Origin: an uncultured Candidatus Peribacteria bacterium
GTDB taxonomy: Bacteria > Patescibacteriota > Gracilibacteria > Peribacterales > Peribacteraceae
Assembly: GCA_964640945.1 (NCBI GenBank)
Contig: CAZXIV010000002.1
Coordinates: forward strand, 368 to 64,367
Length of the DNA: 64,000 bases
Direction: 5' to 3'
In this document: piece by piece, positions 2,170 through 5,780 of the stretch
How the letters are laid out: each line of letters starts with the position of its first letter
How positions within the stretch are numbered: position 1 is the first letter of the stretch
Program-made: the position numbers and the translations under genes
Notes under the pieces: model-generated
The model's input: the letters and a program-made list of their open reading frames with translations, nothing else
Databases searched by the model: none
Told to the model about the DNA's origin: nothing

Positions 2170-3447
2170 ATGACCGACTCCGCCAAGGTTCAACGCCCCG
2201 GCAAGGGGCAGATCGTCGCCACCGTCACCGTCGCTGCCAAGGACTCCACCGTCGCCGAGGAGAAGGCGCTCGCTCGCTTGGGCCAGCGCGTGGCAATCAA
2301 GGGCTTCCGCCCGGGCCACGTCCCGGCCGAGATGGTCCGCGAGCGTATCAACCCGGGCCAACTCTTAGAGGAGACTGTGCGCGAGCTCATGTCGACACTC
2401 ATCCCCGACTTGCTGAAGAGCGAGGACATCAAGCCCATCGTCCCGCCAAACATCGAGGTGGAATCGCGCGATCCTCTCGTGCTCAAGATCACCTTCATCG
2501 AGCGTCCGGAAGTGACGGTGAAGGGCGCCGACCGCATCAAGATTGAGAAAAAGGAGAAGCCAGTCACCGACGCTGACGTCGAGCGCGTCGTGACGGGCCT
2601 TCTCCAGCGCTTCCGCGAAACTAGCCGCAGCGAAGCTCCCTCTAAACTTGGCGATGAGCTCGTACTCACCGCTAAAGCTACCGACGCCAAGGGCGTGACC
2701 GTGCCGGAACTCGCCATGGAGCACCAGCGGCTTCTCCTCGGCTCCACCCGCCTCGTTCCCGGCTTCGACGAGGCCCTCATCGGCCTCAAGGCCACCGAGC
2801 AAAAGACCTTTACACTCACCGTCCCCAAGGACGCGCCGGTGGAACGCTTACGTGGCCAAAAAGTGAGCGTCGACGCCACCATTGAGAGCGTGATGAATGT
2901 GACACTGCCTGAGCTGACCGAGTCATTCGTGAAGGAGCGCTTCGGCATCGGCTCAGCCGCCGAGATGCGCACCGAGATCCGCGCCTCGCTTACCGAGGAG
3001 AACGCCAAACTCGAGCGCCAGCGCCGCGAGCAAGCCCTCTTCGATACGCTGCGCGATGCGGTTCGCGTGGATTTGGCTCCGCCGCTGGTACAAGCCGAAG
3101 AACGGGTGCTGCTGAACGACCTAGTGGAGCAGCTCTCCGCCCAAAAGCGCACCTTGGCCGAGTGGCTCAAGGAGAGTGGCCAGGAGGAGGAAGCTTTCAA
3201 GAAGGAACTCACCACCCGCGCCAGCGAACGCCTCAAGCTGCGCTTTGCCCTCGAGACGGTGCTCGACGAGAAGAAGGTGGAGATGACCGATGAGGAGTTA
3301 ACCAAGGAGGTCGGCGGGATCATCGAGAGCGTCCCCGAAGAGCGCCGCGAAGAGCTGGCCGATTACTACTCGCCCACCGGTGAGGGTTGGGCGCAGCTCA
3401 AGTGGCAGCGCCGCGTCGAGAAGCTTATCGCTTCGTACCTCGGCTGA
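2170..3447 (+). CDS. tig: trigger factor
   Basis: 425 aa. 'IKGFRPGHVPAEMV' ribosome-binding region, central PPIase-like region ('LVPGFDEALIGLK') and an acidic C-terminal domain. Confidence 0.9.
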   Translation: MTDSAKVQRPGKGQIVATVTVAAKDSTVAEEKALARLGQRVAIKGFRPGHVPAEMVRERINPGQLLEETVRELMSTLIPDLLKSEDIKPIVPPNIEVESRDPLVLKITFIERPEVTVKGADRIKIEKKEKPVTDADVERVVTGLLQRFRETSRSEAPSKLGDELVLTAKATDAKGVTVPELAMEHQRLLLGSTRLVPGFDEALIGLKATEQKTFTLTVPKDAPVERLRGQKVSVDATIESVMNVTLPELTESFVKERFGIGSAAEMRTEIRASLTEENAKLERQRREQALFDTLRDAVRVDLAPPLVQAEERVLLNDLVEQLSAQKRTLAEWLKESGQEEEAFKKELTTRASERLKLRFALETVLDEKKVEMTDEELTKEVGGIIESVPEERREELADYYSPTGEGWAQLKWQRRVEKLIASYLG

Positions 3448-4852
3448 CCGCCTTCACAGGCGCCTCGCCCTTCTTCACCACCCAGCCGGCGCCGATGCGC
3501 CGAAGCTCTGTGATATTTTTGAGGGCTTTGCAATTCTGACGGTGGATGACGACGCGCTGTTGTGAGACAACACCCACGATCGGATCCCGCTTTTTAAGAT
3601 CAGCGCGGCAGCAGCGGGCAAAGCGGTGCCCCAGGCGAACATCGGTCTCGAGCGACACGGTCCAGCCGCTGGCCGTATTAGCCACGGGCGCGGCGGCCAC
3701 GGCGATAGTCTTGGCGATGGCGTCTACGGCGCTGAGGGCAGCGGAAAGTTTCAACTGGCCTTGGCCGAGTTTTACCAGGAAATCCTGACGCGCCTCGTGA
3801 TCGACCAACTCCCCGCCGAGTGACGACAGGAGGTGCAAGTCGGCATCGAGCAATGGTAGGCGGCGGCCGCGCAGGGCGACATTGAGTGCCTCGCGACCAC
3901 GCTCCAGGTACGACTCCCGGTTGCGTTCGGCGAGAGCTTTACGCAGCCGCGTGCGGGCGGCAGCCGTCTTGAGCAGCGGCATCCAGCGCGCGGATGGGTG
4001 CGGTTCGGCGGCCCGGATAATCTCCACCACATCACCGTTCTCGAGCGGGTGCTCCATGGGCACGATCGAGCCGTTCACTTTGGCACCCTTGTAGGACAGA
4101 CCGAGCTGGGTGTGCACCGAGAAGGCGAAGTCGAGCGGAGTGGCGGCGGCCGGCAGTTCCACCACATCGCCGCGCGGCGTAAGCACGAAGATACGGTCAT
4201 TCACTTCACTCTCGGTGTCGTCGCCCTCACTCTCGGCCGAGGGCCGGCGCCGGCGGTTGGGCCGGGGCGAGGCGCCCTCCTTATACGTCCAGTGGGCGGC
4301 CACGCCGAACTCCGCCTCGCGGTGCATGTCGGCCGTACGAATCTGCACTTCGATGAGCAAGCCATCGGGCACGCGCGGCAGGTGGGTAAGCGCCGTGTGC
4401 AGGCTCTGGTAGCCGTTTGGCTTAGGGAGAGTGATGTAATCTTTAAAGCGGTTTGGGACCGAGTGCCCCAGCTGGTGTAGGTGGCCGAGCACGCGGTAGC
4501 AGTCGGTGGCCTCGGGCACGATGACGCGCAGCGCAAACAAATCGTAGACGTCCTCGATATCATTCATCCCCTTCTCACGCATTTTGGCGAAGATGCTGTA
4601 GGGCTGTTTGGCCCGCGCCTCAATCCGCACCTGCAAGCCATGGCGTGCCATCATGGTCGTGAGTTCTGCGGCCACCTTAGGCAAAAAATCGCCGTAGCGG
4701 CGGCGGAGACGATCGAGCTGGGCGGCAATGCGCTCACTGTCGATGGGGTAGGCCACGGGAAAGGCCAAGCCCTCAAGCTGGTGCTTGAGTCCGTAGATAC
4801 CGAGGCGAGCCGCCACCGGGGCGTAGACCTTGAGTGTCTCGCGGGCAAACAC
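3425..4852 (-). CDS. relA: RelA/SpoT-family (p)ppGpp synthetase portion (synthetase + TGS + ACT), downstream of an in-frame TAG
   Basis: 475 aa. '[15 protein letters not shown]', 'YQSLHT', '[26 protein letters not shown]', a TGS-like '[24 protein letters not shown]' and a C-terminal ACT-like region. The start here is a GTG restart. The frame is continuous with 4904..5368 apart from one TAG. Confidence 0.85.
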   Translation of the reverse strand: [475 protein letters not shown]

Positions 4853-4903
4853 CGCCTGGCGGCTCGGCGAGAGGAGCCCAACATGTTTCAGCGTCCAGAG
4901 TTT

Positions 4904-5326
4904 CTAACAGAGCGTGACGAGGATAGCGCGCGGATCGGTCGTGAGATTGAAGTACGCCGCGCGCAGCTGGCCAATAGGCAGGCGCTGCTGACCGCCGGCT
5001 TGCACGCGGTGCAGACGGTGGATGGCTTCCGCCAGGGCGATCGTCTCTTTCCCAAAGGCCGTCAGCTCGCGCGCACCGGCCTTGGCCCCGGGCACAAATT
5101 GTAGGAGGCACGCCAAAACGAGCGTCTGGTCGGGATCGTAGGGCTGGAGTTCGTCTACGATGCCACAGACGAATTCGAGCCGGGAAACAGCACCGATTTC
5201 GGGCACGTGATAGCTGGCCCCAATGCGGTCCCAGGCGGCGCGGAGCAGCTTGTCGGAGACGGGCAGATCCCAGTCTTTGAGGGTGGCCAGCAGAGTCTCA
5301 GCATCAGGCACCATGGAGCGAGTCAT
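4904..5326 (-). pseudogene. degenerate HD (pseudo-hydrolase) N-terminal fragment of the RelA/SpoT homologue, ended by in-frame TAG 4904-4906
   Basis: Colinear with the N-terminal HD domain of RelA/SpoT, but the His/Asp motif positions are substituted ('YHVPE', 'LLQFV'). Ends '...ILVTLC*', where the canonical sequence is 'ILIKLADRxHN'. Start taken at ATG 5326 (alternatives 5314 and 5368). Confidence 0.6.
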
Positions 5327-5780
5327 GATACGCCGCCCGTCGCTCCAGGAGCAACGTGACAGGCCCATCGTTTACGAGCCTGACGGTCATATGAGCCCCG
5401 AATCGGCCCCGTTCGACAATGGCCACGCCTGCTTTTCCAAGCTGCTCTGCGAAAAAATTGATGAGCGCGGCGGCGTCGTCCGGGGCGGCGGCCGCGGTGT
5501 AGTCGGGACGATTGCCGCCCTTCAGTGAGCCAAGCAACGTAAATTGGGAGACGACTAACATTTCACCTCCGGCCTGAAGAATCGTTCGGTCGTTGATCTT
5601 GCCGTGTTCATTTGGGAACAAGCGGAGATGTACGATCTTTTCCGCCAACCAACGCGCCTCCTGATCCGTATCGCCCTTTTCGATGCCGACAAGCAAGAGA
5701 TATCCAAAACGAATGGTGCCGATTACCTCGCCCTCCACGCTGACCGAAGCCTCTAGGGTTCGTTGTAGAACAATGCGCAT
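5304..5780 (-). CDS. dtd: D-aminoacyl-tRNA deacylase
   Basis: 158 aa. 'MRIVLQR...LLLVGIEKGDT', 'SQFTL', 'GNRPDY' and 'NDGPVT' are classic Dtd motifs. Lies upstream of relA, as in many bacteria. Confidence 0.9.
   Translation of the reverse strand: MRIVLQRTLEASVSVEGEVIGTIRFGYLLLVGIEKGDTDQEARWLAEKIVHLRLFPNEHGKINDRTILQAGGEMLVVSQFTLLGSLKGGNRPDYTAAAAPDDAAALINFFAEQLGKAGVAIVERGRFGAHMTVRLVNDGPVTLLLERRAAYHDSLHGA

Follow-up and report, generated by a model that had tools for sequence, protein, structure and literature searches.

Bifunctional Rel enzymes, such as those of Mycobacterium (PDB 8fr8 and 5xnx) and Streptococcus (Rel_Seq, 1vj7), consist of a hydrolase (HD) domain followed by a (p)ppGpp synthetase domain, a TGS domain, a helical region and a zinc finger. 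In Escherichia coli RelA (5iqr, 5kps) the HD domain is dead and the synthetase live, and a second long RelA/SpoT homologue (RSH), SpoT, is present in the same cell as a separate, hydrolase-competent protein. The gene described here is a long RSH of the same general layout. It lies on the minus strand of a 64,000-nucleotide stretch of DNA (the window; positions 368 to 64,367 of contig CAZXIV010000002.1, assembly GCA_964640945.1) from an uncultured Candidatus Peribacteria bacterium (Peribacteraceae), the metagenome-assembled genome (MAG) of which comprises 1.27 Mb with 58.5% GC. In this assembly the gene is cut in two by an in-frame TAG codon. It can be said with high confidence that the TAG belongs to this assembly only and is neither programmed nor conserved; its source is a mistake in the consensus or assembly, or else a nonsense mutation limited to the sampled population. 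The normal state of the organism would be a single uninterrupted gene for a protein of 629 amino acids, and a single-base discrepancy, A for C at position 4906 of the plus strand, would have converted a GAG (Glu) codon to TAG.

An in-frame TAG in one assembly

The original prediction, which was made from the letters of the window, reported a TAG at 4904-4906, and this codon is indeed found there, the minus strand reading ...ACG CTC TGT TAG AAA CTC TGG... with the TAG at window positions 4906-4904. It separates two open reading frames (ORFs) of 154 amino acids (4904..5368) and 475 amino acids (3425..4852), which share a common frame and have only this stop between them. When the two pieces are searched separately, the Pfam domain HD_4 is matched with 15.1 and 14.7 bits, both below the cut-off of 27.2. 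The read-through protein reaches 52.2 bits (E 7e-14) in a single stretch, residues 71-191, that crosses the stop. Because the score jumps in this way when the pieces are joined, the two ORFs can be taken as one gene, and they are collinear parts of one ancestral long RSH, as had been proposed. The match to the N-terminal HD domain is one at the level of the fold and spans the stop although the catalytic residues are lost, which places the protein among the long RSHs. The features needed here are the following.

3425..5314, minus strand: Rel-type long RSH, 629 amino acids in its intact form, from ATG (5314-5312, MVPDAE...) to TAA (3427-3425), interrupted by one TAG in this assembly
4904..4906, minus strand: the in-frame TAG, one base (4906, A on the plus strand) away from GAG (Glu)
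4850..4852, minus strand: first in-frame GTG past the TAG, 17 codons downstream of the stop, used by the ORF finder as the start of the 475-amino-acid fragment

Public sequence data covering this place were available as Logan contigs from 14 runs of at least 10 studies, which were placed on the region around 4906. Their sources are metagenomes (fish, mosquito, surface and freshwater) and whole-genome sequencing projects of several other organisms. All 14 have a C at window position 4906, and hence GAG (Glu) on the coding strand. Among the runs compared over 40 kb (window 1-40000), 4906 is the sole position that is contradicted by every covering run; one of these runs, X1, differs from the window only there and at one base 33 nucleotides from the end of a contig. 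When runs were searched with five words sampled around the TAG, none contained more than 1 of the 5, so the TAG form is carried by no indexed run. The same picture emerges at the protein level, where exact sequences were looked up in a collection of 15 billion proteins. The intact 629-amino-acid form, in which Glu takes the place of the stop, occurs on nine Logan contigs, and a second 629-amino-acid member of its cluster on one more. The fragments of 136 and 475 amino acids are each recorded on one NCBI contig only; it is 122,392 nucleotides long, the length of the window's own contig (G000:C2).

Related genomes agree with these data. A six-frame search found the RSH orthologue in 30 of 30 related genomes, and the alignment of orthologues that had been suggested as a check on the stop shows that it is not conserved: four genomes of the same genus have an open frame that reads 'TLCEKLW', with GAG or GAA at the TAG site, and full-length uninterrupted orthologues are present in two genomes (G002 and G003). 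Sense codons therefore occupy this site in the runs (GAG) and in the sister genomes (GAG or GAA) alike, the outcome that the original prediction had named as the sign of a sequencing artefact or a strain-specific lesion. Its placing of the stop at the Asp of the conserved LADR motif was right in one respect, since a phmmer alignment sets the stop against the Asp of 'VADRLHNM' in mycobacterial Rel (8fr8). An ancestral Asp at this codon is not supported, however, the residue of the genus being Glu.

A few more distant relatives were at first flagged as having internal stops as well, and four from the family (G009, G010, G014 and G015) were checked. In these four no stop lies in the body of the gene; the stops either mark the natural C-terminus or fall beyond the part that aligns, and the idea of recurrent internal stops among relatives was rejected as an effect of alignment edges.

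It is worth noting that DNA near-identical to this MAG (over window 1-40000) is present in unrelated runs from at least 10 studies. Apart from 4906, the runs differ from the window by at most a few bases per 20 kb, and each of these differences is confined to one run. The presence of one clone across such disparate samples suggests a contaminant of laboratory water, reagents or kits, or else a very widespread clonal lineage.

Origin of the stop codon

The original prediction offered four explanations, and two of them, an assembly error and a recent pseudogenising mutation, fit a private difference of one base. Between the two there is a slight lean towards error. Neither the lack of the TAG in all other datasets nor the lack of further decay helps to choose, as both fit either case, and the A at 4906 could be a true base, fixed in the population from which the MAG was derived. 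Other points also weigh against the account preferred here. Logan contigs lose minority variants, and a TAG allele at low frequency in the other runs is possible. Many of the 14 runs may share one clonal contaminant and hence not be fully independent. The assignment of the RSHs discussed below as synthetase-only and hydrolase-only is based on motifs. A genome-wide scan for ORF pairs in the same frame that are split by one stop, intended as an index of assembly errors, gave 683 candidates; it is uninformative, because at high GC many open frames are spurious and it is common for adjacent genes to lie in one frame.

A real mutation would mean that the TAG is a genuine nonsense mutation, fixed in the population from which the MAG was derived, and that the gene is a very recent pseudogene. 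This is worth entertaining, although we would not expect it to be so. Like an error, it makes the TAG private and not programmed, and it differs in taking the base as real. At best, such a population would make a pseudo-HD peptide of 136 or 154 amino acids together with a synthetase-TGS protein restarted at a GTG. Independent data otherwise confirm the assembly, with a single private difference over 40 kb; this lends some weight to a real mutation, and the in-frame GTG 17 codons past the stop is a possible restart, provided that the TAG is real. Laboratory strains of E. coli commonly carry loss-of-function alleles of relA, which also counts in favour. On the other hand, words containing the TAG were seen in no indexed run, both fragments are known solely from the MAG's own contig, the gene is free of further lesions and of other marks of decay, and nothing backs the use of the GTG as a start.

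The other two explanations put forward, a deliberately split gene with two products and programmed readthrough or suppression giving a full-length one, both require the TAG to be conserved. The only point in their favour is that the two ORFs are exactly collinear on either side of the stop. Within the strain, at the very least, a programmed feature should be conserved, and this stop is missing from 14 of 14 datasets of the same strain, from four sister species and from those relatives at family level that were aligned or checked. The sense codons in other runs and in sister genomes leave a programmed split, readthrough or recoding unsupported, and we consider a conserved, functional stop very improbable. 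A change of the genetic code, by which TAG would encode an amino acid in the lineage, is less probable still and was rejected: TAG is the least used stop of the genome and some relatives of the same class have recoded TGA, but TAG ends 97 of 899 long ORFs picked by a greedy choice (about 11%), and it ends the ORF at 63486-63488 that had rightly been cited as a genuine TAG stop, other datasets of the strain read GAG here, in-frame TAGs are absent from this gene in the relatives checked, and the many in-frame TAGs at conserved positions that a new code would bring are seen neither in this gene nor in its paralogue.

One of the same-class relatives, G028, has an RSH orthologue (G028:C21:8803-10536) with eight in-frame TGA codons. 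These would fit a lineage of the class in which TGA is recoded (code 25 type) and are unrelated to the TAG of the window.

The split is thus one base in one assembly, and it is ordinary either way, whether error or private mutation. It reveals nothing about the control of the stringent response in this organism. There is a lesson for annotation, in that the two ORFs of this record are one gene, either disrupted or mis-called.

Synthetase, degenerate hydrolase and partner genes

The intact protein can be divided as follows, the coordinates being those of the window.

4796..5158, minus strand: pseudo-hydrolase (degenerate HD) domain, from HD_4 (52 bits) and the alignment to Rel 8fr8
4274..4615, minus strand: (p)ppGpp synthetase domain with intact motifs, RelA_SpoT (PF04607), 128 bits
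4016..4192, minus strand: TGS domain (PF02824), 73 bits, located after the synthetase
3545..3967, minus strand: helical and zinc-finger (AH/RIS) region, weak match to RelA_AH_RIS (20-21 bits, below the cut-off of 23.8)
5304..5780, minus strand: upstream ORF from the ORF list, dtd-like, its function read from sequence alone

The original prediction held that the hydrolase was probably dead, and the alignment to 8fr8 bears this out. At the active site LLHD is replaced by LLQF, with 'LLQFVPGA' in the place of 'LLHDTVED', ED by GA, and DRLHN by (E)KLWT, and the upstream '...THP' motif lacks its His. The same holds for all 11 Peribacteraceae orthologues aligned, which have QF, QH or HH where the HD dyad is expected and have lost the H-N of DRLHN. 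A hydrolase-competent bifunctional Rel or SpoT has the His-Asp metal dyad, the ED pair and DRxHN, and the window gene has none of these; an intact HD motif, which would have spoken for a working hydrolase, did not appear when the protein was properly aligned. Judged by its motifs, the HD domain is catalytically degenerate, and this is so family-wide in the orthologues aligned. The synthetase motifs, by comparison with the Rel and RelA structures, align residue by residue (RxKxxxSIxxK, DxxxxRvI, NGYQSLHT and EVQIRT...AAHWxYKE). The intact 629-amino-acid protein most probably acts as a synthetase only, in the manner of E. coli RelA, and its dead HD domain would be retained as a scaffold beside the intact synthetase, the TGS domain and the putative zinc-finger region.

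At the C-terminal end, the AH/RIS region holds a Cys/His cluster ('RFARCC...HRQNC') and aligns there with E. coli RelA and mycobacterial Rel, the Cys cluster included. The protein had been described as synthetase-TGS-ACT, and this has to be amended: a domain search of the read-through protein gave no match to an ACT/RRM domain, what follows the TGS domain is only the weak AH/RIS match, and little of the protein is left beyond the zinc-finger region. All orthologues from Peribacteraceae have a length of ∼630–690 amino acids. Typical Rel and RelA proteins are longer, with 720–800 amino acids.

The start of the RSH gene (ATG 5314-5312) overlaps the end of the upstream gene (stop at 5304-5306) by 11 nucleotides. 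The upstream gene is presumably a D-aminoacyl-tRNA deacylase (dtd), and the overlap suggests that translation of the two may be coupled in a dtd-rel operon.

Apart from the RSH of the window, two further genes with HD_4 domains are found in the genome.

G000:C3:63380-66151 (= L013:1318-4092), plus strand: SpoT-like long RSH paralogue, 924 amino acids, HD_4 131 bits
G000:C18:6104-6680, minus strand: Mesh1-like small alarmone hydrolase region, ∼190 amino acids, HD_4; best PDB match 3nr1 with 73 bits

The 924-amino-acid paralogue has canonical HD motifs (RKSGEPYFTHP, LLHDTVEDT and DRWHNM). Its synthetase is degenerate, with RCKVRT for EVQIRT, so that the catalytic Glu is absent, and with the R-x-K and Asp motifs lost; there is a weak TGS match, and ∼8–10 transmembrane segments are predicted between residues 620 and 900. 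Relatives of this paralogue occur in 25 of the 26 Peribacteraceae genomes searched. In the 19 loci that were checked the HD motifs are intact throughout, and the frame exceeds 900 amino acids in 12 besides that of the window's own genome. The Mesh1-like region keeps PYITHP, LLHDVMED and DQTCN. It forms the C-terminal end of an open frame of 462 amino acids (G000:C18:6104-7489, minus strand), and may be either a stand-alone protein with a start at 'MSPSL...' or fused to ∼270 upstream residues.

The worry that the organism has a synthetase without a hydrolase is removed by these two genes, an HD-intact SpoT-like RSH and a Mesh1-like hydrolase, the second being what the proposed genome search for a small alarmone hydrolase brought to light. 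Given the intact HD motifs, breakdown of (p)ppGpp would fall to these two proteins. RelA_SpoT synthetase domains are found only in the two long RSHs, and the RSH of the window is therefore the sole gene of the genome in which the synthetase looks intact. Should the TAG be real and no restart occur, the source population would probably make no (p)ppGpp.

It is possible that the Peribacteraceae have evolved their own division of labour of the RelA/SpoT kind, apparently independent of the proteobacterial one, with a dead-hydrolase Rel of ∼630–650 amino acids and a membrane-fused enzyme of ∼920 amino acids in which the hydrolase is live and the synthetase dead; on this our opinion is evenly divided. 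If it is true, degradation of (p)ppGpp would be placed at the membrane. A full-text literature search gave no paper that, by title or abstract, seemed to describe a membrane-anchored hydrolase-only RSH, and for ppGpp or RSHs in Peribacteria or in the candidate phyla radiation (CPR) no title or abstract looked relevant. As a lead, the pairing within the family of one RSH for synthesis only and a second, membrane-anchored one for hydrolysis only is modest. A CPR lineage with a reduced genome would, going by its motifs, keep a full alarmone toolkit, consisting of these two and a Mesh1-like hydrolase, which is of modest value and bears on starvation sensing in such bacteria.

Comparison with known systems

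In the order of its domains (HD-like, synthetase, TGS and, by a weak match, helical and zinc-finger regions) the window RSH is like the bifunctional Rel proteins of Mycobacterium and Streptococcus, and its best PDB sequence match is 8fr8, with 265 bits. It also shares with them an RXKD-type motif, here RFKD, which is reportedly a marker of bifunctional Rel enzymes. It differs from them in that all catalytic residues of the HD domain are replaced, making hydrolysis very unlikely, in having no detected ACT/RRM domain, and in being about 110–170 amino acids shorter.

For the two partner genes, the closest described systems are SpoT and Mesh1. The 924-amino-acid paralogue shares intact HD motifs with SpoT, but it lacks the catalytic Glu of the synthetase and, unlike SpoT, it carries predicted transmembrane segments at its C-terminal end. 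The C18 protein has human Mesh1 (HDDC3; structures 3nr1 and 5vxa) as its closest PDB match, through 3nr1.

On paper the window RSH is also like E. coli RelA, with a dead HD domain, a live synthetase, a TGS domain and a weakly matched zinc finger, and the two can be aligned with 258 bits over residues 129-619. Each is partnered by a separate hydrolase-competent long RSH. At the charge-reversal motif, however, the window RSH has the Rel-type RFKD and not EFDD, and it has no ACT domain. The RelA subfamily is defined by an EXDD motif and by descent from the RelA-SpoT duplication of beta- and gamma-proteobacteria; with its Rel-type RFKD motif and a host in Candidatus Peribacteria, a CPR lineage, the protein does not belong to this subfamily. 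Going by that lineage, the loss of the hydrolase presumably took place independently of the proteobacterial RelA/SpoT duplication.

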